This document shows positions 1-40,079 of a stretch of DNA of 40,079 bases, piece by piece. The stretch lies in sequence record OZ035821.1; one strand, 5' to 3'. The stretch is from Kayfunavirus PDP21P1. The position numbers and the translations under genes were made by a program. Under the pieces are notes generated by a model that was given only the letters and a program-made list of their open reading frames with translations, was not told the origin of the DNA and made no database searches. Each line of letters starts with the position of its first letter. The first letter of the stretch is position 1.

Positions 1-29
1 TACAAAACGATTAAAGGAGGTGGTAAAAC

Positions 30-293
30 ATGACGCAGATGGACTTAGAGAAGTTCCTCTTGATGCTGGATACTGAACGTGCTAGACTCATGCTGCAAGA
101 CCTGCGGGATGACTCTAAGCGTTCACCTCAGCTTTACAACGCCATTGAGAAGCTACTGGCTCGTCACAACTTCGTGCTAAGCAAGGTGTCTGTTGACGAG
201 AAGACGCTCGCTGATATGGAGGCTTTGAACAGGGAGTACGATAAGGTGCTCTCAGCTACTGAGGATAACGACACCGGGTATGGTGTACAGTAA
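30..293 (+). CDS. 18: Terminase small subunit (DNA maturation protein A), T7 gp18 homolog
   Basis: 87-aa ORF with AGGAGG RBS upstream. Sequence (LxMLDTE...RSPQLYNAIEKLLxRH) parallels T7 gp18 as recalled. Lies directly upstream of the spanin and large-terminase genes. Confidence 0.8.
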   Translation: MTQMDLEKFLLMLDTERARLMLQDLRDDSKRSPQLYNAIEKLLARHNFVLSKVSVDEKTLADMEALNREYDKVLSATEDNDTGYGVQ

Positions 294-297
294 GTGT

Positions 298-342
298 TAG
301 ACTCAAGGTCATTACTATATGTAGTGGCCTTTATGGTTAACA
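298..342 (+). promoter_or_regulatory. Conserved hairpin (AAGGTCA-N13-TGGCCTT), candidate RNase III processing site between genes 18 and 18.5
   Basis: One of five copies of the same stem motif (others at 4139-4156, 5162-5187, 9026-9051, 16437-16461). This one sits where T7 has the R18.5 RNase III site. Confidence 0.3.
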
Positions 343-394
343 CACACTACGGGCGGAGACGCTACGTGGATTCTGAGAAATGAGGAGGGCAACT

Positions 395-832
395 ATGCTC
401 GAACTTTTATGTAAAGCAATCCCGTGGCTGGTTGCAGGACTCCTGTTCTGTTCTGGCTACTGGGTGGCAGACAATAAGTGGGAGGCGAAGGTAAACAATG
501 AGTACATCACGAAACTTGAGGCACGAGAGAATCAACGGGCTGCTGTCCAAGGTGAAATCAACAAAGTGTCAGCCGAGTGGCAAGACAAGATGTCCGCGCT
601 GGAAGGCTCTACTGATAGGATTATTGCTGACCTTAACCGTGATAACAAGCGGCTGCGCGTCCGAGTCAACACCTCAGGTCTCACCGAGTCAGATGTCAGT
701 AGATGCTTCCCTAATGGTAGAGTCGAACTACACCCAGAAACTTCTAAAAGTCTTATCCGATTAACTCAGGAGGCAGACCTTAAGGAGAAGGCGCTTCAGG
801 ACACAATAAGGAGGCTCCAAGGTGTTAAGTGA
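395..832 (+). CDS. 18.5: i-spanin (Rz-like), T7 gp18.5 homolog
   Basis: N-terminal transmembrane helix (IPWLVAGLLFCSGYW) and strong similarity to T7 gp18.5 (EGSTDRIIxDLxxDNKRLRVRV). Start moved to ATG 395, which has a GAGGAGG RBS; the track start at 380 lies inside that RBS. Confidence 0.8.
   Translation: MLELLCKAIPWLVAGLLFCSGYWVADNKWEAKVNNEYITKLEARENQRAAVQGEINKVSAEWQDKMSALEGSTDRIIADLNRDNKRLRVRVNTSGLTESDVSRCFPNGRVELHPETSKSLIRLTQEADLKEKALQDTIRRLQGVK
498..764 (+). CDS. 18.7: o-spanin (Rz1-like lipoprotein) embedded in the +1 frame of gene 18.5, T7 gp18.7 homolog
   Basis: Embedded out-of-frame ORF with a signal peptide and lipobox (LTVITSGC). Closely parallels T7 gp18.7 (MSTxRxLR...GCASES...MVSVDxSLMVExN). 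Confidence 0.75.
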   Translation: MSTSRNLRHERINGLLSKVKSTKCQPSGKTRCPRWKALLIGLLLTLTVITSGCASESTPQVSPSQMSVDASLMVESNYTQKLLKVLSD

Positions 833-1259
833 TTACTACAAAGTGGACCCGGCTAGTCCATCCGGTCTGGTCTCCGTTAGGACTGGAAAGCCTGTGGGGA
901 CATTAAGTCGGATGGGATATTGGATAGTACAGACACGAAGTCTAGGCAGTAAGCGGGCCCATCGTGTGATATGGGAACTAACCAATGGTCCTATACCGCA
1001 TGGTATGCAAATAGACCACATCGACAGGAACCCTAGCAATAATACCTTAAGTAACTTACGGCTCGTTACTGCCGCTGAAAACACTTGGAATACTGGTAGC
1101 CATTATGACTCTAAGACAGGAGTGAAGTGCGTTACCCGTCACCAGAATGGTTATAGGATTCAGGTTAAACGCGGGAATGCCTATATGCGAACAACACGTC
1201 CCACTTTAGAGGAGGCTATCGCTGTCCGGGACCTAATGCTGGAGGGACTATATGTCTAA
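822..1259 (+). CDS. HNH homing endonuclease with AP2-like DNA-binding domain
   Basis: Motifs YYKVDPxSPSGLV, [35 protein letters not shown], and a C-terminal GYRIQV...[15 protein letters not shown]2-like segment. GTG start with GGAGG upstream. Absent from the T7 backbone at this position; AT-rich relative to flanks. Confidence 0.75.
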
Positions 1260-3018: not shown

Positions 3019-3112
3019 CTGAATGAATAACTATAGGCGAAAACTGAATTAATAAGCAGTTAGTAACCTATAGTTACTACCAGTCTAACCTACTGTTTTA
3101 TAAGGAGTTTGG

Positions 3113-3135
3113 ACTTAACTATCACTATAGGGAAG
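3113..3135 (+). promoter_or_regulatory. Phage RNA polymerase promoter (phiOR-like, downstream of gene 19)
   Basis: ACTTAACTATCACTATA^GGGAAG; matches the 11-member promoter family in this window. Same relative position as T7 phiOR. Confidence 0.7.
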
Positions 3136-3315
3136 ACCCCCGGTTACTTATAGTATTACTGTAGTGAATATACATATGCAGACTTTATGCAAGACCTTAG
3201 GAGGCAGACTCCGAGTTCTTACCTAAGGCTTGCACCGATGGAAGGAGGGTGATATTAATCATAATCCCTCCAATACAGATAGTCACCGACCATAGATACA
3301 GGAGGTATGTAGCAT

Positions 3316-3474
3316 ATGGCAAAGACCAAAGCTGTACTTAAAGCTCTGGCGACCAATCGAGCTACATACAGGTTTCTTGCTGCTGTTCTACTTGCTGCTG
3401 GCGTTACTGCTGGAAGTAAGTGGGTCGGGTGGGTCGAGACTCTCGTATGTTCTCTGGTGTCTCAGTGTAATTAA
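3316..3474 (+). CDS. Small hydrophobic protein (gp19.5-position ORF)
   Basis: 52-aa ORF found by hand (below the track threshold). AGGAGG RBS 11 nt upstream; predicted transmembrane segment (FLAAVLLAAGVTAG). Positioned after phiOR as T7 gene 19.5 is. Confidence 0.3.
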   Translation: MAKTKAVLKALATNRATYRFLAAVLLAAGVTAGSKWVGWVETLVCSLVSQCN

Positions 3475-3799
3475 CGCAATCATGGTAACGATTCATGAGC
3501 GGAAGACCTAAGGTCAGTACGTGGATAAAGACTCACTCTACTGACCTTAGCTACTGTAGTCAAGGACTTTAGGTAACACCTTAATAGAAGCTCACCTAGG
3601 GTCATCCTACTTATTGGTCTATCCTAGTGTCGCCTGACCTACGGTCACTCGATGAGTTTGGACCAAAAGTTTGAGACCACATCTCACAGTTCAAGAACCT
3701 CAAGTCTCCCCATAGGCCCTCTTTAAGTCCAGACCAAAGGCCCTACCCGTTACTGCTCCTTGCAGTCACAGACAGTCTATCATAAGGTTGGACTGATGG

Positions 3800-4020
3800 T
3801 CAAGACGTTAGGTCGACGATAGGTCTAGGCTATGGCTTAGGGTAGGACGATAGGTAGGGACTATGGGTCTTCTTTGAGTCTCTATCTGTATAGTGTTATA
3901 GTATAACATTACGTCCTACACCATAAGTCTCACCAACCTACAGTCCTACAACCTACAGTCCTACAACCTACAGTCACAACCATAAGACACCAACACCTAC
4001 AGTCATAGACCTACAGTTAC
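3800..4020 (+). repeat. Short direct-repeat arrays in the terminal-repeat / concatemer-junction region
   Basis: Tandem CTACAACCTACAGTC and CCTACAGT units (about 3937-4016) and GATAGGT/TAGGGTAGG units (about 3806-3866), within a roughly 1-kb non-coding stretch between gene 19.5 and the first early gene. Analogous to the CCTAAAG-type repeats flanking the T7 terminal repeat. Confidence 0.45.
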
Positions 4021-4130
4021 TAGACACAGAGCTATAGACTTAAGGTCTAAGACATGTTAGTCAAAGACTATATCCTCTTAGTCACCATGAGGCCGACGAT
4101 AGCTTAATCAATATTATTTCAAATTACCTA

Positions 4131-4160
4131 TTGACTATAGGTCAAGGATATGGCCTAATA
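4131..4160 (+). promoter_or_regulatory. Candidate host sigma70 early promoter (A1-like)
   Basis: TTGACT (4131-4136), then 17-18 bp, then a weak -10 (CCTAAT/CTAATA); upstream of the first early gene. Overlaps an AGGTCA-N6-TGGCCT hairpin. Confidence 0.25.
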
Positions 4161-4270
4161 GCTTCCGTCAACACGACACGGCAACAACCGGATAGTGAAG
4201 ACGCCGGTCCGGTCCGGTTAAGTAGTCAGCCTGTAAGACATACGAACAACAGGCAACCGACAGAAAGTAG

Positions 4271-4300
4271 TTGACAAGATGTAACGATAAGATGTAAGAT
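4271..4300 (+). promoter_or_regulatory. Candidate host sigma70 early promoter (A2-like)
   Basis: TTGACA (4271-4276), 18-bp spacer, TAAGAT (4295-4300). Resembles the T7 A2 promoter (TTGACA ... GTAAGATAC) as recalled. Confidence 0.4.
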
Positions 4301-4486
4301 GTACCACATCGAAACAACGGTGATGACCAACACTGAAATGGTCTACCTGAAGTCCTCTGACTGAAGGGAATGTTCTTTAACAATCTGGATAAACTCTTAA
4401 TGTGCGCCGACAGTGATTAGCTACAGGGTCTTTGAGTCTACATCTGAAGGCCCTGACTGATAGTCACTAACTAAAGGATAAACAAG

Positions 4487-5011
4487 ATGAAACTGATAGG
4501 CAAGGGCGCGTTCACTAAGTGCTACCTGAAGGACTGCGGGAAGCGTGTAATTCTGGTATCTTCAGACCCAATCAAGGAGTGTATGGCGTGGGGATGGTTC
4601 CCTGAGTCTCCACTGTTCCCTGAAGTCAAAATGATTGAGGTAGGCACGTATGAGATGGAATACATGCCACCAACACGAGGTCTCAAGGCGCATTTAGACG
4701 ATGACCAATGGCAACTCTATCAGGTGTTGCGAGACTGCTTCTCACGGTCTCCGGTAGTCTCTCGACCTGCCGAACTGTATCACAAGTGGTACGAGTTATT
4801 CCAAGATGCACACGACAGGTCTGAGTCTGAGACTGTGCGGGAGGGCCTGATGGATGTTCTGATGGCGCTGGACGCTTGCGCTAACTTCGGGTCAGACATT
4901 CAGTTTGAGATAAGCCCACGTAATGTACGGGCTGTGGATGGCAAGTTGATACTGGTTGATTGTTTCTTCCTTGTGTCCAAGCTGCCAAAGATGAGGTCGT
5001 CAAAATGGTAA
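4487..5011 (+). CDS. Early protein, possible gp0.7-family protein-kinase-like domain
   Basis: 174 aa, first ORF after the early promoters, AAAGGA RBS. Glycine-rich loop IGKGAFTKCY followed by RVILV resembles the T7 gp0.7 kinase N-terminus (LGNGHFSAAY ... RVIKV) only loosely. Not acidic, so not Ocr-like. Confidence 0.45.
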   Translation: MKLIGKGAFTKCYLKDCGKRVILVSSDPIKECMAWGWFPESPLFPEVKMIEVGTYEMEYMPPTRGLKAHLDDDQWQLYQVLRDCFSRSPVVSRPAELYHKWYELFQDAHDRSESETVREGLMDVLMALDACANFGSDIQFEISPRNVRAVDGKLILVDCFFLVSKLPKMRSSKW

Positions 5012-5154
5012 CTTATGGTCTCTGCCAGCACCACGTCACCAACGCCCGGATTATGGTCAAGACCGGGCAGTTAGACCACGATTGGGCTATGCGTCTCTTG
5101 AAAGTGGTCTACAGGAGACGCAAGCGTATACACGACAGCTTGCACGCTAAGTGA
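5005..5154 (+). CDS. Hypothetical early protein (basic C-terminus)
   Basis: In-frame ATG at 5005 overlaps the upstream stop (ATGGTAA) and has a GAGG RBS. 49 aa, ending in an Arg/Lys-rich tail (VVYRRRKRIHDSLHAK). Confidence 0.3.
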   Translation: MVTYGLCQHHVTNARIMVKTGQLDHDWAMRLLKVVYRRRKRIHDSLHAK

Positions 5155-5220
5155 TAAACGAGAGGTCATCGAATGATAGGTGGCCTCAAAGATTATCACT
5201 TACATTGATAGGGGTTAACT

Positions 5221-5388
5221 ATGAAATTTACAATCATCGCACTTTACATAACCATTATTCTATCTTGGCTTACTGCGGTGCTCACTGATGGTAACGCATT
5301 ACGACTGGGCTGGCTGGCAGTGGACATTATATTCTCTCCGGTAGGTGTCGTGCGCGGTATCTTGATGTGGATTGGACTGGCGGGATAA
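5221..5388 (+). CDS. Hypothetical small membrane protein
   Basis: 55-aa hand-found ORF with two predicted hydrophobic helices (IIALYITIILSWLTAVL; GVVRGILMWIGLAG). Weak RBS. Confidence 0.3.
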   Translation: MKFTIIALYITIILSWLTAVLTDGNALRLGWLAVDIIFSPVGVVRGILMWIGLAG

Positions 5389-5391
5389 ACT

Positions 5392-5589
5392 ATGAGTCTT
5401 GCACTATTGATAGCCATAGGCTATGGACTTATCGCCTACATGCTGATGAGAGACATCAACAAGGCGCGTAAAGTCTACAAATTCAACTATGTACGTCTGG
5501 GCCGCTGGACTGTACGTCAACCTAACGGGCGCTTCGCGCGTAACTTAGCGAACGTCTGGGATATAGCAACTCTTGGGAGCAAACTGTAA
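5392..5589 (+). CDS. Hypothetical early protein with N-terminal transmembrane helix
   Basis: 65-aa ORF; N-terminal hydrophobic segment LALLIAIGYGLIAYML. Tightly packed with neighbouring ORFs. Confidence 0.4.
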   Translation: MSLALLIAIGYGLIAYMLMRDINKARKVYKFNYVRLGRWTVRQPNGRFARNLANVWDIATLGSKL

Positions 5590-5915
5590 TGAACAAGTCA
5601 TACGGGATTAATTTGGTACACTCTATGGACGCAGAAATGAACACGTTAAGCCTACTGGCTACCGGGTATCGTCACGGAACGTCAAGTCACTCCGCACGTC
5701 AACAGCAGGAGCGGGACCGTGTACTACAGGCACGACTCCGGGCAGAGGGCCATAAGTACGAACTGATGTGTCTGGCGTATGGTGGACGACCGATCACTGA
5801 CGATGGTAAACTTCTGGTCTCAGGCTGGAAGGCGATAGACCAACGGTCAACCATCAAGCACACGACTCACGGTGACTTCAGTCATCTTCACGCTAACCCT
5901 CTGATATGTAAGTAA
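5589..5915 (+). CDS. Hypothetical early protein
   Basis: 108-aa ORF; start overlaps the upstream stop (TAATG); GGGAG RBS. No recognisable motif. Confidence 0.5.
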   Translation: MNKSYGINLVHSMDAEMNTLSLLATGYRHGTSSHSARQQQERDRVLQARLRAEGHKYELMCLAYGGRPITDDGKLLVSGWKAIDQRSTIKHTTHGDFSHLHANPLICK

Positions 5916-5920
5916 TTATG

Positions 5921-5943
5921 ACTTAACTATCACTATAGGACTC
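5921..5943 (+). promoter_or_regulatory. Phage RNA polymerase promoter immediately upstream of gene 1
   Basis: ACTTAACTATCACTATA^GGACTC, identical at -17..-1 to the promoter at 3113. Lies 70 nt upstream of the RNA polymerase start codon. Confidence 0.65.
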
Positions 5944-6012
5944 AAGGTCTAAGACTCCAAGTGAAAGACCAAAGAGACTCTAAGTGAAAGACTAATAACA
6001 AGGACTTTAAGT

Positions 6013-8694
6013 ATGAGCGTCATCTCTATTGACAGACACGACTTCTCTGATGTGTCGAACGCCATTGAGCCGTTTAACCTGCTGGCAGACCACTACGGGC
6101 AAGACCTTGCAGTAAAACAGCTTCAGCTTGAGCATGAGGCATACACTGAAGGCGAGCGACGTTTCATCAAAAACCTTGAGCGACAGACTGAGCGCGGGGA
6201 ACTGGCAGACAATCAGGTCGCCAAGCCTTTGATGCAGACTCTGGTTCCTAAGATTGCGCAAGCCGTCAGGGAGTGGCATGAAGGCCCAGACGGGAAGCTG
6301 TCAACCTCTCGTCCTAGCGTAGCGTTCACCATGTTGAGCACTGAAGAGAGGGCCGTTAAAGACCGTTCTCTACGCATCTCCTGCGAGTCTGCTGCTGTCA
6401 TCATACTGAAGGTCATCCTCTCCAAGCTGGTCAAGCCTGAAGGGATACCGATTACACCGATGGCCTCCGCGTTAGGTCGCACACTTGAGGACGAAATCCG
6501 CTTCGGTCGCATCCGTGACAAGGAGAAAGAGCACTTCAAGAAGGCGATAGCTGATAACCTGAATAAGCGGGCCGGGGCGTCCTACAAGAAAGCCTACATG
6601 CAAGCGGTCGAGGCATCCATGCTGGAGAAAGGCCAACTGGAAGATGCGTGGGGGACTTGGAGTCCTACAGAGGCTGTCCACGTTGGCATCAAGATGCTCG
6701 AGATTGTCATCCAGTCAACACAACTGGTCGAGCTTAAGCGGTACGGCGCTGGCAATGCAGCGGCTGACGTAGAGATGGTCCACCTGTCAGACTTCTGGGT
6801 CAAGAAGATGGCACAACGAGGATTCAGCCTTGCGGGTATCGCTCCAGTCTACCAGCCTTGCGTCGTTCCACCTAAGCCGTGGACTGGTGTCGTAGGTGGT
6901 GGGTACTGGGCCAAAGGTCGCAGACCACTACCACTGATTCGCTTAGGGTCTAAGTCTGCGGTAGCACGTTACGAAGACGTGTACATGCCTGAAGTATATG
7001 ACGCTGTTAACATTATCCAGAATACACCTTGGAAAGTGAACAAGAAGGTTCTGGACGTGGTGAACATGGTCGAGAAGTTGCACAACACGCCTATTGATGA
7101 CATCCCTCAGATGGAGCCACTGAAGCCTGAGGACTATGTGGGTGAGACTGAAGAAGAACTCAAAGCATGGAAGAAAGCTGCTGCTGGTATCTACCGCCGC
7201 GAGAAGGCCCGACAGTCACGCAGATTGTCGCTGAGTTTTATCGTCAGCCAGGCGAACAAGTTCTCGCAGTTTAAGGCTATCTGGTTCCCATACAACATGG
7301 ACTGGCGCGGTCGCGTCTACGCTGTACCGATGTTCAACCCTCAGGGTAACGACATGCAGAAAGGTCTCCTGACTTTGGCAGTCGGTAAGCCTATTGGCGC
7401 TGATGGTTTCAAATGGCTGAAGGTCCACGGTGCAAACTGTGCGGGTGTTGATAAAGTCACCTTCGAGGAGCGCATCAAGTGGGTGGAAGATAACCACGAC
7501 AACATCATGGCTGCTGCTAAAGCGCCGATGGATAGTATTGAGTGGTGGGGAAAGTTAGACTCTCCGTTCTGTTTCCTCGCGTTCTGCTTCGAGTATGCTG
7601 GCGTAATGCACCACGGCCTTTCTTACTCCTGCTCGCTACCGATAGCGTTCGATGGGTCCTGCTCTGGGATTCAGCACTTCAGCGCGATGCTTCGTGATCA
7701 CATCGGTGGACACGCAGTAAACCTGACGCCATCCGGTAAGGTACAAGACATCTACCGCATCGTGTCCGACCGCATTGAGGAGGAGCTTAAAGTCCTGCTG
7801 GTTAACGGCACGGACAATGAGATGGTAACTCACGAGGACAAGAAAACTGGTGAGATTACCGAACGTCTCAAGCTGGGGACACGAGAGCTGGCCCGGCAGT
7901 GGCTTACTTACGGTATGTCACGTAAGGTCACTAAGCGTTCAGTCATGACTCTGGCCTACGGGTCGAAGGAGTACGGATTCGCAGACCAAGTTTACGAGGA
8001 CATCGTGATGCCAGCGATTGACTCAGGGTCTGGCGCTATGTTCACCGAGCCAAGCCAAGCGTCTCGCTTCATGGCTAAGATGATTTGGGAAGCTGTGAGT
8101 GTGACCGTAGTTGCTGCTGTTGACGCGATGAAGTGGCTTCAGGGTGCTGCCAAGCTGCTGGCTGCTGAAGTGAAGGACAAGAAGACTGGAGAAATCCTGA
8201 AGCCTTGCCTTCCAGTACACTGGGTAACACCTGATGGTTTCCCTGTCTGGCAGGAATACCGCAAGAAGGATACCACGCGTCTGAACCTGATGTTCTTAGG
8301 GTCATTCAACCTTCAGCCTACCGTCAACAAAGGCACGAAGAAGGAGCTGGATAAGCACAAGCAGGAGTCAGGAATTAGCCCGAACTTCGTCCACTCACAA
8401 GATGGTAGCCACCTACGCAAGACTGTAGTCCACACTCACCGCAAGTATGGCGTGATGTCATTCGCAGTGATTCACGATAGCTTCGGGACAATCCCGGCTG
8501 ACGCTGAGTATCTGTTCCGTGGTGTCCGTGAGACTATGGTCGAGACCTACCGCGACAACGATGTGCTGCTTGACTTCTACGAGCAGTTCGAATACCAGCT
8601 TCACGAGAGTCAGCGCGACAAGTTGCCTGAGCTTCCGAAGAAAGGTAAACTGAATATCGAAGACATCTTGTCTTCAGACTTTGCATTCGCTTAA
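6013..8694 (+). CDS. 1: DNA-directed RNA polymerase (single-subunit), T7 gp1 homolog
   Basis: 893 aa. Near-collinear with T7 RNAP as recalled (PWTGxxGGGYWAxGRRPL, FPYNMDWRGRVYA, FCFLAFCFEYAG, HDSFGTIPADA, C-terminal FAFA). Confidence 0.97.
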   Translation: MSVISIDRHDFSDVSNAIEPFNLLADHYGQDLAVKQLQLEHEAYTEGERRFIKNLERQTERGELADNQVAKPLMQTLVPKIAQAVREWHEGPDGKLSTSRPSVAFTMLSTEERAVKDRSLRISCESAAVIILKVILSKLVKPEGIPITPMASALGRTLEDEIRFGRIRDKEKEHFKKAIADNLNKRAGASYKKAYMQAVEASMLEKGQLEDAWGTWSPTEAVHVGIKMLEIVIQSTQLVELKRYGAGNAAADVEMVHLSDFWVKKMAQRGFSLAGIAPVYQPCVVPPKPWTGVVGGGYWAKGRRPLPLIRLGSKSAVARYEDVYMPEVYDAVNIIQNTPWKVNKKVLDVVNMVEKLHNTPIDDIPQMEPLKPEDYVGETEEELKAWKKAAAGIYRREKARQSRRLSLSFIVSQANKFSQFKAIWFPYNMDWRGRVYAVPMFNPQGNDMQKGLLTLAVGKPIGADGFKWLKVHGANCAGVDKVTFEERIKWVEDNHDNIMAAAKAPMDSIEWWGKLDSPFCFLAFCFEYAGVMHHGLSYSCSLPIAFDGSCSGIQHFSAMLRDHIGGHAVNLTPSGKVQDIYRIVSDRIEEELKVLLVNGTDNEMVTHEDKKTGEITERLKLGTRELARQWLTYGMSRKVTKRSVMTLAYGSKEYGFADQVYEDIVMPAIDSGSGAMFTEPSQASRFMAKMIWEAVSVTVVAAVDAMKWLQGAAKLLAAEVKDKKTGEILKPCLPVHWVTPDGFPVWQEYRKKDTTRLNLMFLGSFNLQPTVNKGTKKELDKHKQESGISPNFVHSQDGSHLRKTVVHTHRKYGVMSFAVIHDSFGTIPADAEYLFRGVRETMVETYRDNDVLLDFYEQFEYQLHESQRDKLPELPKKGKLNIEDILSSDFAFA

Positions 8695-10998: not shown

Positions 10999-11037
10999 CT
11001 TGTTCTAGCAAGCTATCGTCTGGGCCACCAGCTAGAC

Positions 11038-32897: not shown

Positions 32898-33347
32898 ATG
32901 AAGAACGGGACAGCCAGTGAGAGACTGGCAGAACTGTCAGTAGCTGAAGAGTCTGGCTGTATCCGATTCACAGGCCACTTAGACGGAGAAGGATACGGAA
33001 GGATAATGGTGGCTAGGGTTAAGTATATGGCACATCGTCTCTCCTACTCCATAAATAAGGGGCCAATACCAGATGGCTATGTTGTTAGGCATAAATGTGA
33101 TAATCCATCATGCATAAATCCTGAACACCTTGAAGTAGGAACGCAGGCTGACAACATTGCAGATAAGGTATCCAGAGGCCGACAGGCAAGAGGTAGTGGA
33201 GCAGGCAGAGCTATACTGACAGAGGAATCTGTTAGGGAAATACGCTCCAGTCCATTAAAAGTATCTGAGCTTTCCACCTTATACGGGGTAAGCGTCGTTT
33301 CCATACGAAATATATTGAGGAGAAAGACATGGCAACACGTGGTGTAA
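32898..33347 (+). CDS. HNH homing endonuclease inserted between genes 15 and 16
   Basis: CIRFTGHLDGEGYGRI, GPIPDGYVVRHKCDNPSCINPEHLEVGTQADNIADKVSRGRQ; same family as 9230 and 18588. AAGGAG RBS; AT-rich codon usage. Confidence 0.8.
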   Translation: MKNGTASERLAELSVAEESGCIRFTGHLDGEGYGRIMVARVKYMAHRLSYSINKGPIPDGYVVRHKCDNPSCINPEHLEVGTQADNIADKVSRGRQARGSGAGRAILTEESVREIRSSPLKVSELSTLYGVSVVSIRNILRRKTWQHVV

Positions 33348-36300
33348 GGAACGCAAATCCGGGCAATATCCGTAAGTCCAAAGACCAGTGGGAAGGTGCT
33401 ATAGGCGATGATGGTGCATTCGTTATCTTCGACAGTCCTGAATCTGGGGTCCGAGCATTAGCGAAAAACCTTCAAAGCTACGGTCGCCAAGGTTATGACT
33501 CTATCGAGAAGATTATCAACAGATGGGCACCTCCGAGCGAGAACGACACTCAGTCCTACATCGACTCGGTTGTATCTGCTACTGGTATTCCTGCAACTCA
33601 AAGTCTCGACCTCTCGGACCCGGACACACTGTCTTCTCTGGCGCAAGCTATCAGCTTCCATGAGACAGGCTCCCGGTACGACCCTGAAGTCTATCAACAG
33701 GGAGTCGCAAGAGCACTCAACGGTATCAGCCCAAAGACTCCACCAGTAAGCGCTAACGTATTTGACGCACTCACGGAAGGACTCAAGGCTAAACCTAAAG
33801 TAGCTCTGGGTGAGAACCTTCCGACCGCTGCTGGTCTGAATATTGAGGGTCAAGCACCTGAAGCTCCCAACGAATCGTTCGGTGAGATGTTCTATAAGGC
33901 TACTGGAGAGACCATGCAGGAACGAGAGGACCGCTCTACGTGGTTCGGTTTCGGTGCTGCTACAGAAGCTGAAGTGAAGAACTCTATGGTCGGCGTGGCT
34001 ATCCGCGCTGGTCAGACCGAGGACTCACTGGATGTCATTGGCGATGTGTTTAACCCGACCCGCTGGAACAACCATAAGTGGACTCGTGAAGAGCTTGACC
34101 AGATTCGTAACGCTGGGGTTCTGCCTCAGTATTATGGAGTCATTACTGGTGGGTCTCCTCAGAACCTGACAGAGCTTATTAACTTGGCTCTTGAGAACCA
34201 GAAGTTGGACCAAGAGAAGGCCAAGGCTGGGACTGGTGCTCAGTTAGCTGCTGGTGTGATTGGTGCTGGTGTGGACCCTCTGACCTACGTTCCTATCGCT
34301 GGACAGGTGGGTAAAGGAGGTAAACTGGTCAACAAGATGTTCACCGTGGCGGCTCAATCTGGAGCACTGGCTGGTGTGTCTGAGATGGCCCGTACCTCAG
34401 TGGCTGGTGGTGATGCTCATGTGGCGGAAGCTATCCTTGGCGGTGCTCTCTTCGGTGGTGGCATGACTGCTATCGCTGATGGCCTAGGCAGAGCCTTAGG
34501 ACGAAACACTAATGAGTTTGCTGGCCCAGCTACACGTCTGGAAGCTCGTGAGACTGCTCGTAACGTTGATGGTCAGGACCTGTCTCGTCTACCTATTCAG
34601 GAAGGTGAGCAGACCTTTAGTCATCAAGGTGTTAAGTTCGCTGACGTGCCGAATGAGCCGGGAAGTGTACGATTAGAAGACGGTTCAATCCTGATTGGGG
34701 AGAACCCTCTGAACCCTAAGACACGTCAAGTCTTTGACGAAGTGATTGAGCCGGAACGTGCCGCTGCTGGTGTGAACCTTGGTGGACTTACCGAGATTGG
34801 CCTGAAGCTGCTTCGGTCTGAGAACCCTGAGATTCGTGGAGTAGCTGCTGACTTAGTGCGTTCACCTACTGGTATGCAGTCTGGGGCCTCAGGTAAAATC
34901 GGGACAACTGCGTCAGACGTGTTCGAGAGACTTCGTTCTGTGGACCATCGGTTCTACAACGACATCGACGATGCGGTTACTGAGGCACTAAAGGACCCGT
35001 ACTTCCAGACTGCATTCTGGCGAGACTCTGGCGCATTCCGTCAGGACATCTACCAGCGTGTGTCTATGGCTATCGAAGATGGTAGCGGAAACCTGAAGGC
35101 TGAACTGACTCCGGGAGAACTGAAAGTCTATGACCTACTGAAGAACCAGTTTGACGCCAAGCGTGAGATGATGGAGAACCCGTCTATGTTTGGGCGTCCA
35201 GACGCTCAGTCTATCTTTCCGGGCAGCCGCTTCAAGGGAACCTACGTCCCGCATGTGTATAGCAACCAGATGAAGGAGCTGTACATCAAGGAGCTTGGGA
35301 GTCCAGAGGCACTACAGGAGGCCATCAAGAAGTCATGGTTGACCAGCTATGCGTCTCGACCTGAGGTCAAGAAACGTGTGGACGAGGCACTCTTAGAGGC
35401 TGACCCTACGTTGACTCCAGAAGGACTTGCGGCTGCGGTCGATAAGTACGCCAACGATAAGGCTTATGGTATCTCTCACACCGAGCAGTTCGAGCGTTCA
35501 TCCGTAATGGAAGAGAACATCAATGGTCTGGTGGGTCTGGAGAACAACAGCTTCCTTGAGGCTCGTAACCTGTTCGATAGCGATATGTCAATCGTCCTGC
35601 CTAACGGTCAGACCTTCAGTGTCAACAACCTGCGTGAGTGGGACATGGACAAGATTGTCCCGGCCTACAACCGTCGAGTTAATGGTGATATTGCTATCAT
35701 GGCTGGTACAGGCAAGACCACGAAGGAAATGAAGGACTTAGTTGAGACCATGATGAACAAGGCTGGCGATGACGGAAAGTTGAAAGGTGAAGTATCTACC
35801 TTACGTGACACCTTGAAGATTCTCACTGGTCGTGCTCGACGTGATGGTGCTGATGATGCGGCCTTCGCTACCGTGATGCGCACGATGACAGACCTATCGT
35901 TCTTCACTAAGAATGCCTATATGGGTGTTCAGAACTTGACGGAGATTGGTGGTATGCTGGCTCGCGGCAACGTTCGTGCTCTGCTGCATGGAGTCCCGAT
36001 GTTCCGTGACCTAGCCTTCCGTAACAAGAAGGTAGGGGCTTCAGAGATTAAGGACCTGCACAATGTTATCTTCGGTAAGGAACTGGATGACTCAATCCGT
36101 CCGTCTAAACAGGATGTCATTGACCGTCTGCGGTCTTACAGTGACCTAGGTCGTGGTGCAGCTACAGCTCTGGGGACTGCCAAGTATTACACTGGTGAAC
36201 TTGCAGTACGCTCTCCGTTCACTAAAGTCCTCAATGGTACGACCAACTACCTGTTAGATGCTGGACGTCAAGGATTCCTGTCTGACATCGTGGAGCATAG

Positions 36301-37216
36301 CTTGACTGGTAGTAAGCGTAAGTTCGATGACCGCTGGCTGAAGACAGCTGGTATCTCAGACGAGCAGTGGAAGGGCATTAAGTCCCTAATCCGTGAGTCA
36401 GTGACTCGTGGTCCAGACGGGAAGTACACCATCAAGGATAAGAAGGCGTTCAGTCAGGACCCAAGGGCTATGGACCTGTGGCGTATGGGTGACACCATCG
36501 CTGACGAAACGTTACTCCGTCCTCATAAGCTGTCCAACATGGACGCCAAGGCTTATGGTCCTATCGCTAAGACTGTCCTTCAGTTTAAGAACTTCGTCAT
36601 CAAGTCCATCAATGGGCGAACCATGCGTACCTTCTATAACGCCACGAAGAACAACCGAGCGATTGACGCTGCACTATCGACCGTGATGTCTATGGGTCTG
36701 GCTGGTATCTACTACATGGCTCAGGCGCACATCAAGGCTTATGCTATGCAGGATGGTCGAGACCGTGACTACCTTAAGCAAGCTCTGGACCCAACGATGA
36801 TTGGCTATGCGGCCCTGTCCCGTAGTTCACATCTGGGTGGACCACTTGGGGTAGCTAACATTCTAGGTGGCATCGCTGGGTATGAGGACACTAAGATGCT
36901 CCGTTCGTCTATCCTACCTCGTTCGCCTACAGAGAAGCCTGAACGTGCCATCACGTTTGGTGCAGCTACAAGTGACCCTGTGATGAATGTTGTTGGTAAC
37001 TTCTTGGAGCAGGTTCCAGCTTTCGGATATGCTGCTAACGTTGGCGTTTCTGCTTACAACTTGGCTGGCTACCTCAAGGCTGATACTCGTGTCAACGAGC
37101 GAGACTACATGACCGGGATGTATAATACGTTCCGTGAACTGGTCCCGAATGACCCGATTACCCAGAAGTTGCTGCTTGGAACGTTTGAGGAGCAGGGTAT
37201 CCACATCAAGGACTAA
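33329..37216 (+). CDS. 16: Internal virion (core) protein D, T7 gp16 homolog
   Basis: 1295 aa. Collinear with T7 gp16 from about residue 200 onward (VRSPTGMQSGASGK, GTYVPHVY, GISHTEQF, NNSFLEARNLFDSD, NGTTNYLLDA, DPRAMDLWR, NNRAIDAALS, ELVPNDPxTQ). The N-terminal ~200 aa does not match the T7 transglycosylase domain as recalled. Confidence 0.92.
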   Translation: MATRGVRNANPGNIRKSKDQWEGAIGDDGAFVIFDSPESGVRALAKNLQSYGRQGYDSIEKIINRWAPPSENDTQSYIDSVVSATGIPATQSLDLSDPDTLSSLAQAISFHETGSRYDPEVYQQGVARALNGISPKTPPVSANVFDALTEGLKAKPKVALGENLPTAAGLNIEGQAPEAPNESFGEMFYKATGETMQEREDRSTWFGFGAATEAEVKNSMVGVAIRAGQTEDSLDVIGDVFNPTRWNNHKWTREELDQIRNAGVLPQYYGVITGGSPQNLTELINLALENQKLDQEKAKAGTGAQLAAGVIGAGVDPLTYVPIAGQVGKGGKLVNKMFTVAAQSGALAGVSEMARTSVAGGDAHVAEAILGGALFGGGMTAIADGLGRALGRNTNEFAGPATRLEARETARNVDGQDLSRLPIQEGEQTFSHQGVKFADVPNEPGSVRLEDGSILIGENPLNPKTRQVFDEVIEPERAAAGVNLGGLTEIGLKLLRSENPEIRGVAADLVRSPTGMQSGASGKIGTTASDVFERLRSVDHRFYNDIDDAVTEALKDPYFQTAFWRDSGAFRQDIYQRVSMAIEDGSGNLKAELTPGELKVYDLLKNQFDAKREMMENPSMFGRPDAQSIFPGSRFKGTYVPHVYSNQMKELYIKELGSPEALQEAIKKSWLTSYASRPEVKKRVDEALLEADPTLTPEGLAAAVDKYANDKAYGISHTEQFERSSVMEENINGLVGLENNSFLEARNLFDSDMSIVLPNGQTFSVNNLREWDMDKIVPAYNRRVNGDIAIMAGTGKTTKEMKDLVETMMNKAGDDGKLKGEVSTLRDTLKILTGRARRDGADDAAFATVMRTMTDLSFFTKNAYMGVQNLTEIGGMLARGNVRALLHGVPMFRDLAFRNKKVGASEIKDLHNVIFGKELDDSIRPSKQDVIDRLRSYSDLGRGAATALGTAKYYTGELAVRSPFTKVLNGTTNYLLDAGRQGFLSDIVEHSLTGSKRKFDDRWLKTAGISDEQWKGIKSLIRESVTRGPDGKYTIKDKKAFSQDPRAMDLWRMGDTIADETLLRPHKLSNMDAKAYGPIAKTVLQFKNFVIKSINGRTMRTFYNATKNNRAIDAALSTVMSMGLAGIYYMAQAHIKAYAMQDGRDRDYLKQALDPTMIGYAALSRSSHLGGPLGVANILGGIAGYEDTKMLRSSILPRSPTEKPERAITFGAATSDPVMNVVGNFLEQVPAFGYAANVGVSAYNLAGYLKADTRVNERDYMTGMYNTFRELVPNDPITQKLLLGTFEEQGIHIKD

Positions 37217-37234
37217 ACTATCACTATAGGAAAC
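37212..37234 (+). promoter_or_regulatory. Phage RNA polymerase promoter (phi17-like)
   Basis: ACTAAACTATCACTATA^GGAAAC; overlaps the gene 16 stop codon. Confidence 0.75.
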
Positions 37235-37281
37235 GGGAGGCGCTACCATAGGTCTCCCTTTAATTCATAACAGGAGGCATA

Positions 37282-39813
37282 ATGTCCACGCTTACACAAT
37301 TCCCTTCAGGAAACACTCAGTACAGGATTGAGTTCGACTACCTAGCCAGGACGTTTGTTGTTGTTACGCTGGTGAATAGCTCTAACCCTACCCTGAACCG
37401 TGTACTGGAAGTTGGTCGAGATTACCGATTCCTTAATCCAACGATGATTGAGATGTTGGTTGACCAATCAGGTTTCGACATCGTTCGTATTCACCGTCAG
37501 ACTGGAACTGACTTAGTGGTAGACTTCAGGAATGGCTCAGTGTTGACAGCTAGTGACCTGACCAATGCAGAGCTTCAGGCTATCCATATTGCAGAAGAAG
37601 GTCGAGACCAAACGGTTGACTTAGCGAAGGAATATGCCGATGCTGCTGGTAGCTCTGCTGGCAACGCTAAGGATAGCGAGGACGAAGCACGCCGAATCGC
37701 TGCGAGTATCAGGGAAGCTGGTCTAATTGGCTATATTACCCGTCGCTCCTTCGAGAAAGGCTACAACGTTACAACATGGAGCGAGGTCCTGCTATGGGAA
37801 GAGGATGGTGATTATTACCGCTGGGATGGTACGCTTCCAAAGAACGTTCCTGCTGGTTCAACTCCTGAAACTTCCGGTGGGATTGGATTAGGTGCGTGGG
37901 TTAGTGTTGGTGATGCTGCTTTAAGAAGTCAGATTTCAAACCCGGAAGGGGCAATACTCTACCCGGAATTGCAGATGGCAAGATGGCGTGATGAGGGTGA
38001 TGTTCGAGGCTGGGGTGCTAAAGGGGATGGTGTAACAGATAGTACGGAGAATATAGCTGCTTCACTAAATTCTCAAAAAGCTGTCGTAGCATCAGAAGGT
38101 GTATTCTCTAGTTCTGGTATTAATAGTAATTACTGTAACTTAGACGGTAGAGGCAGTGGGGTGCTAAGTCACCGTTCCAGTACAGGTAACTACTTAGTAT
38201 TTAACAATCCACGTACAGGTCGCTTAAGTAATATTACGGTAGAAAGTAATAAGGCGACGGATACCACTCAGGGACAGCAGGTATCTCTTGCTGGTGGCAG
38301 TGATGTTACGGTAAGTGACGTTAACTTCTCAAACGTTAAAGGTACTGGTTTCAGTTTAATCGCATACCCTAATGATGCGCCACCTGATGGACTTATGATT
38401 AAAGGCATTCGAGGTAGCTATTCCGGCTATGCTACTAATAAGGCAGCCGGATGCGTACTTGCTGACTCCTCAGTTAACTCCCTCATAGATAACGTCATTG
38501 CTAAGAACTACCCTCAGTTCGGAGCAGTAGAGTTGAAAGGTACAGCCAGTTACAACATAGTCAGTAATGTTATAGGGGCAGATTGCCAGCATGTAACTTA
38601 CAACGGCACTGAAGGGCCAATAGCTCCTTCTAACAACCTTATCAATGGGGTAGTGGCTAATAATCCTAAATATGCAGCGGTTGTTGCAGGCAAAGGTAGT
38701 ACCAACTTAATCTCCGATGTGCTTGTAGATTTCTCAACCTCTGATGCTAGGCAGGCTCATGGTGTTACAGTAGAAGGTTCTGGTAACGTCATAAATAATG
38801 TGCTTATGTCAGGGTGTGATGGTACTAACTCTTTAGGGCAAGCTCAAACTGCTACAATTGCACGCTTTATAGATACAGCTAATAACAACTATGCGTCTGT
38901 ATTTCCTAGCTACAGTGCTACAGGTGTTATTACTTTCGAATCAGGTTCTACCCGTAACTTCGTAGAGGTAAAGCATCCGGGAAGGAGAAACGACCTTCTC
39001 AGTGCTACTGGTACTATTAGCGGTGCAGATACTATTGACGGCACTAATAATAGCAACGTAGTGCACGCCCCTGCATTAGGGCAATACATAGGCAGTATGT
39101 CCGGTAGGTTCGAATGGCGGATTAAGTCCATGTCACTTCCATCAGGGGTTCTTACCTCTGCGGATAAGTACAGGATGCTTGCCGATGGGGCTGTGTCATT
39201 AGCTGTAGGCGGAGGTACTTCTTCTCAAGTACGCCTGTTCACTTCTGACGGCACTTATCGGAATATATCACTTACTAGCAGTAACGTGCGTCTTCCTACC
39301 AGTAGCGAAGGTTATTTGCAGTTAGGTTCTAATGCAATGACCCCAGATAGTACTAATACATACGCATTAGGTTCCGCAAGTCGAGCATGGTCTGGCGGTT
39401 TTACTCAATCAGCATTCACTGTTGTCTCAGATGCTAGGGATAAAACAGAGCCTCTTAATATCTCAGATGCTTTACTGGATGCTTGGTCTGAAGTTGACTT
39501 TGTGCAGTTTCAGTACTTGGACCGAATTGAGGAGAAGGGTGCAGACTCAGCTAGATGGCACTTCGGCATCATCGCTCAGCGAGCTAAGGAGGCCTTCGAA
39601 CGTCACGGTATAGATGCACATCGCTATGGCTTCCTGTGCTTCGACAGTTGGGATGATGTGTACGAGGAAGATGCCAATGGCTCTCGTAAACTGATTACAC
39701 CAGCAGGTTCCCGCTATGGTATTCGTTACGAGGAAGTACTGATATTAGAGGCTGCGTTGATGCGGCGTACTATTAAGCGTATGCAGGAAGCATTAGCTGT
39801 TATGTCTAAGTGA
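37282..39813 (+). CDS. 17: Tail fiber / tailspike: T7 gp17-like N-terminal anchor, beta-helix (pectate-lyase-like) domain, C-terminal self-cleaving chaperone domain
   Basis: N-terminal ~150 aa (FDYLARTFVVVTL, VDFRNGSVLTASDL, AIHIAEEGRD) parallels the T7 gp17 tail-attachment domain. Central region has GWGAKGDGVTDST, typical of pectate-lyase-fold tailspikes. C-terminus (SDARDK...WHFGIIAQRAKEAFE...GIRYEEVLILEAA) fits the peptidase S74 / intramolecular chaperone family. Confidence 0.9.
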   Translation: MSTLTQFPSGNTQYRIEFDYLARTFVVVTLVNSSNPTLNRVLEVGRDYRFLNPTMIEMLVDQSGFDIVRIHRQTGTDLVVDFRNGSVLTASDLTNAELQAIHIAEEGRDQTVDLAKEYADAAGSSAGNAKDSEDEARRIAASIREAGLIGYITRRSFEKGYNVTTWSEVLLWEEDGDYYRWDGTLPKNVPAGSTPETSGGIGLGAWVSVGDAALRSQISNPEGAILYPELQMARWRDEGDVRGWGAKGDGVTDSTENIAASLNSQKAVVASEGVFSSSGINSNYCNLDGRGSGVLSHRSSTGNYLVFNNPRTGRLSNITVESNKATDTTQGQQVSLAGGSDVTVSDVNFSNVKGTGFSLIAYPNDAPPDGLMIKGIRGSYSGYATNKAAGCVLADSSVNSLIDNVIAKNYPQFGAVELKGTASYNIVSNVIGADCQHVTYNGTEGPIAPSNNLINGVVANNPKYAAVVAGKGSTNLISDVLVDFSTSDARQAHGVTVEGSGNVINNVLMSGCDGTNSLGQAQTATIARFIDTANNNYASVFPSYSATGVITFESGSTRNFVEVKHPGRRNDLLSATGTISGADTIDGTNNSNVVHAPALGQYIGSMSGRFEWRIKSMSLPSGVLTSADKYRMLADGAVSLAVGGGTSSQVRLFTSDGTYRNISLTSSNVRLPTSSEGYLQLGSNAMTPDSTNTYALGSASRAWSGGFTQSAFTVVSDARDKTEPLNISDALLDAWSEVDFVQFQYLDRIEEKGADSARWHFGIIAQRAKEAFERHGIDAHRYGFLCFDSWDDVYEEDANGSRKLITPAGSRYGIRYEEVLILEAALMRRTIKRMQEALAVMSK

Positions 39814-39917
39814 GTAATACTGGTACGGTATTTTCGCACAATGAAATCGTTGAACACGCTAACCAACGTATGTAACAACTTTGGGTCACGGACGACCCGC
39901 TTTAAACTGGAGGTTTT

Positions 39918-40079
39918 ATGATTGAGTTAGACTTCAAGAATGAGGTCCTTAAAGCCTCTCCTATCGTCGGGACCGCTGCGGCTGATGGTGCCAGTCGGTT
40001 CTTCTTCGGACTTACACTGAACGAATGGTTCTACGTTGCAGCTATCGCGTACACCGTTGTCCAGATTGGTGTGCTAGTC
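39918..40079 (+). CDS. 17.5: Holin (class II), T7 gp17.5 homolog; 3' end truncated by the window edge
   Basis: MIELDFKNEVLKASPIVGT...RFFFGLTLNEWFYVAAIAYTVVQIG parallels T7 gp17.5 (MLSLDFNNELIKAAPIVGT...LFFGLSLNEWFYVAAIAYTVVQIG). GGAGG RBS. The ORF runs to the last base of the window. Confidence 0.8.
   Translation, partial: MIELDFKNEVLKASPIVGTAAADGASRFFFGLTLNEWFYVAAIAYTVVQIGVLV

Follow-up and report, generated by a model that had tools for sequence, protein, structure and literature searches.

Several phage tail spikes that share modules with the protein analysed here have been described. KflA, the K5 lyase of coliphage K5/K5A (PDB 2x3h), and ORF46 of the SP6-like phage K1-5 (Vectrevirus/Zindervirus) are composed of a catalytic β-helix, a stalk and a chaperone domain. 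KflA is a trimeric β-helical lyase that continues into a triple-stranded β-helix or prism (PMC8822698); its N-terminal peptide is only 30 aa long and attaches to an adaptor protein, which in K1-5 is gp37 (PMC6966330). The K1-5 lyase is listed as a 67 kDa precursor and a 52 kDa mature form (review PMC5380687), and the Ser/Lys autoproteolysis mechanism of such chaperone domains has been described (PMC4690869). K1F gp17, the endosialidase endoNF and type Kayfunavirus tail spike, is a 1064-aa protein with an anchor, a capsule depolymerase (a catalytic β-propeller sialidase for the K1 capsule) and a Ser/Lys self-cleaving chaperone. In T7 gp17, by contrast, the tail-attachment domain continues into a coiled-coil shaft that ends in a tip without enzymatic activity, which binds rough LPS. 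The protein carries neither a lyase nor a chaperone domain; its length of 553 aa, as given in the initial annotation of the locus studied here, matches the chain length of PDB 7boz.

The window, i.e., the whole stretch of DNA analysed, is 40,079 nt of Kayfunavirus PDP21P1 (OZ035821.1), and the parts of the tail spike locus described below lie on its (+) strand. The gene of interest occupies 37282..39813, exactly as annotated initially: the ORF list gives an ATG start and 843 aa plus stop, with a precursor mass of 90.3 kDa. We conclude with high confidence that its product is the sole receptor-binding tail spike of a K1F-like, T7-related coliphage, and that the body of this spike is a K5 lyase. 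The protein itself is not new: structures nearly identical to it have been solved, and 15 sequenced phages carry the gene. It is 98.1% identical over its full length (843 aa; 16 differences) to the "Tail spike protein" of PDB 9vvr, whose 18 chains make six trimers; it scores 1288 bits against the PHROG tail-spike family 14895, and the whole gene is present at 95.8-98.7% DNA identity in the 15 GenBank phage records. The spikes of 9vvr, IME177, vB_EcoP-R1, Kayfunavirus AN24P4/AN17P1, vB_EcoP-101120B2, PM129-139, SHAK7854 and ZG49 have the same length and architecture, and differ only by point substitutions and by an allele patchwork in the lyase core. A literature search for 9vvr, IME177 or vB_EcoP-R1 returned no paper on this spike. 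The initial annotation had read the protein as a T7-type anchor joined to a horizontally acquired β-helical depolymerase and a self-cleaving chaperone, and all four elements of that interpretation are supported by the analyses that follow.

The position of the gene is that of gp17. A gp16 homologue (33329-37216) precedes it, a holin gene follows from 39918 onward, gp18 is at position 30 of the window and the terminase gene lies at 1252-3018, in synteny with K1F, to which the backbone is ∼94% identical. The gene is preceded by a late promoter and a ribosome-binding site of its own. The promoter copy for the phage RNA polymerase (37210..37232, the equivalent of phi17) is one of a 10-copy family of 23 nt with the consensus ACTAAACTATCACTATAGGGA; it lies directly 5′ of the tail spike gene and overlaps the gp16 stop codon. 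The AGGAGG ribosome-binding site (37272..37277), read in the intergenic sequence, is 4 nt from the ATG. Genome position, promoter and downstream holin are as in K1F, and so is the order of the modules, from anchor through capsule depolymerase to a Ser/Lys self-cleaving chaperone.

At its N-terminus the protein carries a T7 gp17-type virion anchor (aa 1-116; 37282..37629). PF03906 matches aa 10-115 with 57.3 bits (gathering cut-off 25.2), and the T7 gp17 structures 7boz, 8dsp and 8e4g match aa 6-116 (7boz, E = 3e-16). A T7-type anchor had been proposed from a resemblance of the first ∼150 aa to T7. The resemblance is real, but likeness to T7 itself is confined to ∼aa 6-116, and the N-terminal module derived from the phage backbone is longer than proposed, 211-253 aa rather than ∼150. 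By analogy with characterised homologues, six homotrimers would attach to the tail through aa 1-116. The anchor is followed by an Ala/Glu/Asp-rich neck (aa 117-155; 37630..37746), which is probably a helical linker that joins the anchor to the next domain; a low-confidence model weakly places helices at aa 95-158. An LEA_4 match at aa 104-132 was discarded as a spurious, low-complexity artefact.

The neck would lead into a Tail_spike_N domain (aa 156-211; 37747..37914), identified by PF18668 with 69.2 bits (cut-off 25) and by PDB matches 4oj5, 5w6h, 6nw9 and 9occ. This domain had been missed in the initial description of the N-terminus, which was incomplete in this respect. It is common to many tail spikes. 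The module that all Kayfunavirus gp17 proteins share ends with it at aa 211, most homology stopping at nt 632-648 of the gene.

Because this domain is homologous to the N-terminal domains of CBA120 TSP1/3/4 and of G7C-type proteins, and KP32-type phages have branching domains immediately behind the anchor (PMC13352976), it could be read as a docking platform for a second receptor-binding protein in a branched system. We regard this as highly improbable, since the holin gene directly follows gp17, and since K1F, whose copy of the domain is 98-100% identical in DNA, is regarded as a phage with one receptor-binding protein. The class II holin gene (gp17.5) starts at 39918 and reaches the end of the window (39918..40079); its 64-aa product, read across the wrapped ends, is identical to the K1F holin. 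The window being circularly permuted, the gene runs on at positions 1-33, and K1F matches 39854..40079 plus 1..757 without a break. As the holin gene continues across the wrap, there is no second receptor-binding gene after the tail spike; likewise, no second tail-spike-like ORF was found between gp16 and the terminase genes. A two-protein arrangement of the KP32/K1-5/CBA120 type was rejected for want of a second gene, and with the holin gene directly after the tail spike PDP21P1 is taken as a phage with one receptor-binding protein.

Downstream of this module the composition of the gene changes. The GC content of the segment that encodes the lyase (aa 241-716) is 0.446, whereas that of the genome is 0.50 (z = -3.0). 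Elsewhere than in the gene, a value this low is reached in just 0.56% of windows of equal size. At third codon positions the GC content of the lyase part (GC3) is 0.34, compared with 0.553 ± 0.042 in twelve long backbone genes, a distance of ∼5 SD. The AT-rich shift noted initially is therefore neither chance nor a flat profile, and the codon string quoted for it occurs once, at 38029-38070. The fall starts at ∼37950-38000, where identity to K1F is lost as well. Inside the segment GC is uneven, with a partial recovery to 0.48 at 38900-39400 and 0.478 in the C-terminal domain. The span first given for the AT-rich DNA was ∼37900-39400; the foreign cassette, however, runs past 39400 to the stop codon, and so includes the chaperone domain. 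With a GC of 0.45 the cassette is close to the SP6-like and N4-like genomes in which it is likewise found (0.42-0.44). One might ascribe the AT-richness to amino-acid or structural constraints of β-helix proteins, with no foreign origin: Asn, Ser, Thr, Ile and Val abound in β-helix spikes, and GC at first codon positions is slightly lower in the lyase part as well (0.494, against 0.58 in the anchor). We find this barely credible, given that the largest shift is at synonymous third positions, that the compositional boundary is the point where K1F homology is lost, and that the cassette is found at 93% identity in two other phage families; in our view the GC3 shift and the shared cassette already refute it.

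Horizontal acquisition of the cassette, the reading that we prefer, is documented by the comparison with K1F and by a recombination scar. The N-terminal 263 aa of K1F gp17 are 93.5% identical to those of PDP21P1; beyond aa 263 the K1F protein, including its catalytic domain, is unrelated in sequence until the C-terminal domain, where identity is 30%. At the DNA level identity to K1F is 98-100% up to ∼37960, ∼78% to 38040 and random beyond. The junction segment (aa 212-253; 37915..38040) lies between two recombination hot spots and holds the motif GWGAKGDGVTDST, which is present as first reported and begins at aa 243. This motif had been taken as a pointer to a pectate-lyase-type β-helix, but GWGAKGDGVTD also occurs in the β-propeller endosialidase of K1F; it marks the swap junction and was a lucky pointer rather than a diagnostic of the β-helix. 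The matches to other K5 lyases enter the gene in the same region, at 37896 for the N4-like phages and at 38035 for phage K5. The K5 lyase of the N4-like Gamaleyavirus phages UE-S5a/b, UE-M3 and UE-M6 is 91.7% identical in protein over aa 156-843, and its DNA match from 37896 to 39829, which takes in the junction segment and 16 nt beyond the stop codon, is the longest cassette in common with PDP21P1. These lyases differ from the PDP21P1 spike in having their own N-terminal 100 aa (N4-type attachment), and the same phages also have an endosialidase gene immediately upstream of the K5 lyase.

Just 3′ of the tail spike stop codon we found a non-coding remnant of a K1F-type endosialidase gene (39824..39857). 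All 34 nt are identical to K1F gp17 codons at ∼aa 994-1005, and they include the codons for TVFSHNEIVEH of the chaperone domain. Sequence comparison showed that this segment is absent after the K5 lyase gene in UE-S5b and in phage K5. Several near-identical phages retain a longer endosialidase remnant at this place than PDP21P1 does; in the sister phage 101120B2 it is the whole 3′ end of the gene, ∼214 nt, non-coding and frameshifted. Since such a remnant follows the stop codon, we conclude that the AT-rich K5-lyase cassette (∼37960/38040 to 39823) replaced the endosialidase cassette of a K1F-like ancestor. Recombination took place in the conserved junction motif at the 5′ end, and at the 3′ end within the chaperone-domain region or beyond it; a deletion of ∼250 nt would have come later. 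The exchange might have gone the opposite way, with the K5 lyase ancestral in this Kayfunavirus lineage and the endosialidase gained later by K1F: compared with the backbone, the two catalytic cassettes are each rich in AT (GC is 0.446 in the endosialidase part of K1F), and so both look foreign. A gene fragment, however, can be left only by a gene once present, and an endosialidase fragment follows the K5-lyase stop codon in 101120B2, with a 34-nt piece in PDP21P1, whereas no K5-lyase fragment was seen beside K1F gp17. The opposite direction is thus very unlikely, and replacement of the endosialidase by the K5 lyase is the direction that we adopt. From the graded remnants in the sister phages it might be possible to read the direction and the date of a K1-to-K5 capsule switch. 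Scientifically this is nothing new in kind, being one more case of the shuffling of anchor, enzyme and chaperone modules in tail spikes; the small gain is a clean directional example of a K1-specific ancestor turned into a K5-specific phage, which rests on two swap junctions (aa ∼211-216 and ∼250-253) and the left-over endosialidase fragment.

The body of the spike (aa 254-715; 38041..39426) is a K5 (heparosan) lyase, with a right-handed β-helix and a C-terminal trimerising stalk as its predicted parts. Residues 242-716 are ∼93% identical to the KflA crystal structure 2x3h (E = 1.6e-281), and identity to CAA71133 (KflA) is 93.0% over aa 242-843. A pectate-lyase match (PF12708) reached 17.3 bits, under its cut-off of 27, and was not used as evidence. 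Single-sequence AlphaFold2 prediction of the full protein gave an unusable model (mean pLDDT 33, pTM 0.25), and the fold is therefore taken from sequence identity to solved structures and from published work: at 93-98% identity to those structures, and with the description of KflA (PMC8822698), we accept that the body is likely to be a trimeric, right-handed, single-stranded parallel β-helix. The β-helical depolymerase proposed initially is supported by this match to KflA. Its target had been given as "capsule or O-antigen"; capsule fits, but the label is generic for an enzyme predicted to be specifically a K5 heparosan lyase. PDP21P1 differs from KflA in that the enzyme is fused to a 253-aa anchor module of the T7/K1F type and attaches directly to the tail.

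The proposed catalytic residues of KflA, Glu206, Lys208 and Tyr229, fall at an offset of +211 on E, K and Y in all three cases. Those proposed for PDP21P1 are thus Glu417, Lys419 and Tyr440 (38530..38601). The protein departs from KflA by 36 substitutions in aa 254-843, and these spare all three residues. Extrapolating from KflA and K1-5 ORF46, the body would bind the E. coli K5 capsule (heparosan, -4GlcA-β1,4-GlcNAc-α1-) and cut it by β-elimination, presumably with these three residues, so that the phage could tunnel through the capsule to the outer membrane. As the lyase would let the phage through the capsule, the tail spike is expected to set the host range, i.e., K5-encapsulated E. coli. 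Strains of this group include the probiotic Nissle 1917, and uropathogenic strains also belong to it. Naming the host-range determinant as a K5-capsule lyase is useful for picking or engineering phages against K5 E. coli, and the spike is also a possible source of a heparosan-cutting enzyme.

It could be argued that the KflA fold is retained with a shifted specificity, the spike acting on a polysaccharide other than K5 heparosan or serving mainly as a binder. Seventeen of the 36 substitutions cluster in aa 575-692, a stretch (38992-39351) that reaches just 83-91% identity with any of the other K5 lyase alleles in the comparison, and for ES17-TFP, a distant relative, binding to heparan sulfate is reported while depolymerase activity has not been demonstrated (PMC7885116). 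We consider this improbable: over 38092-38631, the β-helix part in which the proposed active site lies, identity to phage K5 kflA is 94-100% and the E/K/Y residues are kept, the divergent stretch would lie in the C-terminal stalk, outside the catalytic groove, judging from the description of KflA, and dN/dS values of 0.13-0.19 in both the lyase and the C-terminal domain indicate a maintained function. Identification of the spike with the ES17 heparan-sulfate-binding fibre was rejected, as the latter has only distant structural similarity to K5 lyase (PMC7885116). A K5-specific lyase thus remains our reading of the body. K5 heparosan is the unsulfated backbone of mammalian heparan sulfate, and for this reason we raise, as a doubtful proposal, that N-acetylated heparan-sulfate domains of gut or urinary epithelium may be a further target which the virion lyase binds or trims. 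If true, such binding would place the phage at the mucosal surfaces where K5 E. coli live; the tail fibre of ES17, a distant relative, has been reported to act much in this way (PMC7885116). The reading of the remnants as a record of a capsule switch is a separate proposal, held with the same doubt.

The C-terminal domain (aa 716-843; 39427..39813, stop codon included; 14.8 kDa) is an intramolecular chaperone of the PF13884 (Peptidase_S74) family, which matches aa 716-776 with 52.7 bits against a gathering score of 22. It aligns with the corresponding domains of phi29 gp12 (3gud, E = 1.9e-23), endoNF (3gw6, 5.9e-21) and T5 pb1 (4uw8, 9.3e-10), and is 93% identical to that of KflA and only 30% to that of K1F. 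The chaperone domain had been placed from Ser716 at the motif S-DARD-K, and both hold: the motif spans Ser716 to Lys721, and 127 residues follow Ser716. The predicted autocleavage site, Ser716-Asp-Ala-Arg-Asp-Lys721 (39427..39444), was located by alignment to known Ser/Lys dyads, with Ser716 and Lys721 falling on S-DERH-K of the phi29 gp12 C-terminal domain (3gud) and on S911A/K916 of endoNF (3gw6). The cleavage-site Ser and Lys are also those of KflA, and the crystallised, mature KflA chain (2x3h) ends at the residue aligned to Ser716; together with the 67 and 52 kDa forms listed for the K1-5 lyase, this gives indirect support to cleavage at the position proposed initially. From the chaperone-domain literature it can be extrapolated that the last 128 residues would nucleate trimerisation of the C-terminal stalk and then be removed by Ser716/Lys721 autoproteolysis, to leave a mature spike of ∼75.5 kDa and a fragment of ∼14.8 kDa. 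The upstream Arg701 is kept in each of the four K5 lyases that were compared, and its register relative to endoNF and T5 is off by one in an ungapped alignment. The residue before the scissile Ser is Val715 in PDP21P1, whereas KflA and T5 pb1 have a Thr at this position.

The tail spike open reading frame was present as the initial annotation had proposed, at 37282-39813 on the + strand, with an ATG start and 843 aa. It carries its own AGGAGG ribosome-binding site and a phage-polymerase promoter at 37210-37232 (+), one of ten 23-nt copies. The backbone is that of a Kayfunavirus (Autographiviridae, Studiervirinae), with ∼94% identity to phage K1F along 25 kb. The genome is circularly permuted in the window, the ends of which cut through the holin gene (39918-40079 joined to 1-33), whose wrapped 64-aa product is identical to the K1F holin. 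The K1F match runs contiguously from 39854 across the end to 757, gp18 starts at position 30, and no terminal direct repeat was found between the window's two ends. Since gp16 (33329-37216) precedes the tail spike gene and the holin gene follows it, the gene lies at the gp17 position, in a phage with a single spike.

Three Pfam matches exceeded the curated cut-offs: Phage_T7_tail (aa 10-115), Tail_spike_N (PF18668, aa 156-211), which had been overlooked, and Peptidase_S74, "chaperone of endosialidase" (aa 716-776). A pectate-lyase-like match (aa 241-366) fell under threshold. Residues 242-716 aligned with the crystal structure of KflA, the K5 lyase of the SP6-like coliphage K5 (2x3h; E=1.6e-281), and the terminus of the 2x3h chain aligned with Ser716, where the self-cleaved mature spike should end. 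Over its full length the protein differs at 16 residues (98.1% identity) from PDB 9vvr, a "Tail spike protein" of 843 aa whose deposition comprises 18 chains, the count expected from six trimers. A single-sequence AlphaFold2 model gave a pLDDT of 33. The proposed KflA active site is reportedly formed by Glu206, Lys208 and Tyr229 (Thompson et al. 2010); with an offset of 211 we take these to be Glu417, Lys419 and Tyr440 in the tail spike, and all three are conserved. The lyase and chaperone parts are under purifying selection (dN/dS 0.13-0.19 against both phage K5 and UE-S5b, an N4-like phage). KflA is a trimeric lyase with a central β-helix followed by a triple-stranded β-helix or prism (PMC8822698); the K5 capsule, composed of heparosan, is its substrate (PMC6966330, PMC5380687).

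The suggestion of a chaperone domain starting at Ser716 held: the last 128 residues aligned with the chaperone domains of phi29 gp12 (3gud), K1F endosialidase (3gw6) and T5 pb1 (4uw8), and the S-DARD-K motif corresponds to Ser716...Lys721, both of which coincide with the catalytic dyad in this alignment. The Ser/Lys/Arg self-cleavage mechanism has been described (PMC4690869). In the mechanism proposed by analogy with characterised homologues, six spike trimers would dock to the tail by the N-terminal anchor, and the β-helix would bind K5 heparosan and cleave it β-eliminatively, giving the virion access to the outer membrane. The C-terminal domain would nucleate the trimeric stalk while folding and then be cut off at Ser716, so that a 90.3-kDa precursor would yield products of 75.5 and 14.8 kDa.

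The shift in base composition was real. Sliding-window GC dropped from ∼0.52 to 0.42-0.45 from ∼37950 on, and the AT-rich codons quoted as an example lie at 38029-38070. The lyase segment (aa 241-716) has a GC of 0.446 vs 0.50 for the genome (z = -3.0), a value as low being found, outside the gene, in only 0.56% of windows of the same size; the chaperone domain, at 0.478, is less extreme. The shift was greatest at third codon positions (GC3 0.34 vs 0.553±0.042 for the backbone, from twelve long genes), hence codon usage is involved, and not amino-acid content alone.

To the 1064-aa endosialidase gp17 of K1F, protein identity is 93.5% over residues 1-263; beyond this point the two are unrelated except for the chaperone domain (30% identical). 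DNA identity to K1F is 98-100% from 37282 to ∼37960 and ∼78% to 38040, then random. Phage K5 kflA matches 38035-39817, and the UE-S5b K5 lyase gene 37896-39829. Across 199 phage records surveyed, the homology with spikes of other Kayfunavirus members broke off at two points only: gene nt 632-648 (aa ∼211-216; LM33_P1, EcoDS1, CLB_P1, Bas105 and many Salmonella Typhi phages) and nt 750-759 (aa ∼250-253; K1F-type endosialidase phages). The N4-like and SP6-like K5 lyases start at these same two points, which therefore mark the boundaries of an anchor module, a junction segment and a cassette. The conserved anchor module, made up of the T7-like anchor, the neck and the Tail_spike_N domain, is thus ∼211 aa long rather than the ∼150 aa first estimated, and the 40-aa junction segment sits between two recombination hot spots. 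The module at 37900-39400 had been called foreign, and both this and its approximate start stood; its end did not, as the cassette reaches the stop codon, chaperone domain included. The GWGAKGDGVTDST motif begins at residue 243, where GWGAKGDGVTD had been read as pointing to a β-helix. It lies on the second junction and also occurs in the K1F endosialidase (GWGAKGDGVTDDT), and hence is a splice-point marker and not diagnostic of that fold.

The direction of the exchange is indicated by a scar. Ten bases past the K5-lyase stop codon, window positions 39824-39857 are identical (34/34) to the K1F gp17 codons for TVFSHNEIVEH (∼aa 994-1005, within the endosialidase chaperone domain), and an ACAC microhomology links this remnant to K1F-type intergenic sequence. 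In the sister phage vB_EcoP-101120B2, the only one whose remnant was examined at the level of single bases, the entire 3'-terminal ∼214 nt of the endosialidase gene come after the K5-lyase stop, frameshifted, with the last 32 codons still ...GVRPDGIFFAEAAYQRRKLERIEARLSALEQK, as in K1F. The junction was matched across in all 15 K5-lyase Kayfunaviruses, as one continuous match in the window, ZG49, IME177 and vB_EcoP-R1, and in two pieces over a longer stretch in the remaining records, an indication of extra sequence. Because a gene fragment requires a once-complete gene, the ancestor was K1F-like and K1-specific, and a K5-lyase cassette took the place of its endosialidase; loss of ∼250 nt later shortened the remnant in the PDP21P1 sublineage.

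The lyase core (38092-39351) is a patchwork, in which successive blocks of ∼100-500 nt are nearly identical alternately to phage K5/101120B2 or UE-S5b. Block 38092-38631 shares 94-100% identity with phage K5 and 91% with UE-S5b; for blocks 38632-38721 and 38812-38991 the figures are 98-100% with UE-S5b and 86-94% with the others; block 38992-39351 (aa ∼571-690), which accounts for 17 of the 36 residues that differ from KflA, is 83-91% identical to every comparator. K5-lyase alleles thus recombine across three phage lineages. The cassette GC (0.45) is near both SP6-like and N4-like contexts (0.42-0.44) and singles out no donor. In N4-like Gamaleyavirus phages from UPEC, among them UE-S5b (our L002, locus 1-5918), an endosialidase gene has the K5 lyase gene directly behind it, a K1+K5 dual-spike arrangement that parallels K1-5, an SP6-like phage of another family. 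In ZG49 (our L004, NC_047777; locus 3001-6241) this tail spike is split in the annotation between gp38 (window aa 1-686) and gp39 (aa 458-843); the two CDSs imply that the counterpart of 38621-39331 is duplicated in tandem, which may be genuine or an assembly artefact.

The architecture, enzyme, chaperone and exact fusion are already known, since the same fusion is found in 15 phage genomes and one PDB entry. Enzymatic spike domains on variable anchors are shared among Kayfunavirus, Gamaleyavirus and other phages (PMC11990801, PMC13352976). The initial annotation was itself a good reading, to which the analysis adds a precise map of the junctions and a scar that gives the direction. The heparan-sulfate-binding fibre of ES17 is a distant relative only, and reading the Tail_spike_N domain as part of a branched two-spike system is unsupported because the genome lacks a second spike gene.

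Elsewhere in the window, the 23-nt phage-RNA-polymerase promoter-like element (ACTAAACTATCACTATAGGGA) occurs on the + strand only, at 3111, 5919, 8996, 12012, 14387, 20752, 23573, 24560, 29111 and 37210, with an eleventh variant, of a related family, at 11031. The lowest GC outside the tail spike (0.437 in a 1428-nt window from 3021) was found just after the terminase gene, at ∼3021-4450, a stretch with short CCTACA-type repeats, tandem and dispersed (3913-3972 and 3998-4034), that is probably the genome-end/early region. A 145-aa HNH_3 homing-endonuclease ORF (822-1259, +; Pfam E=6.7e-21) lies between an Rz-like gene (380-832) and the large terminase gene (1252-3018); K1F lacks it, its match stopping at 757 and restarting at 1300, and 101120B2 has it annotated.
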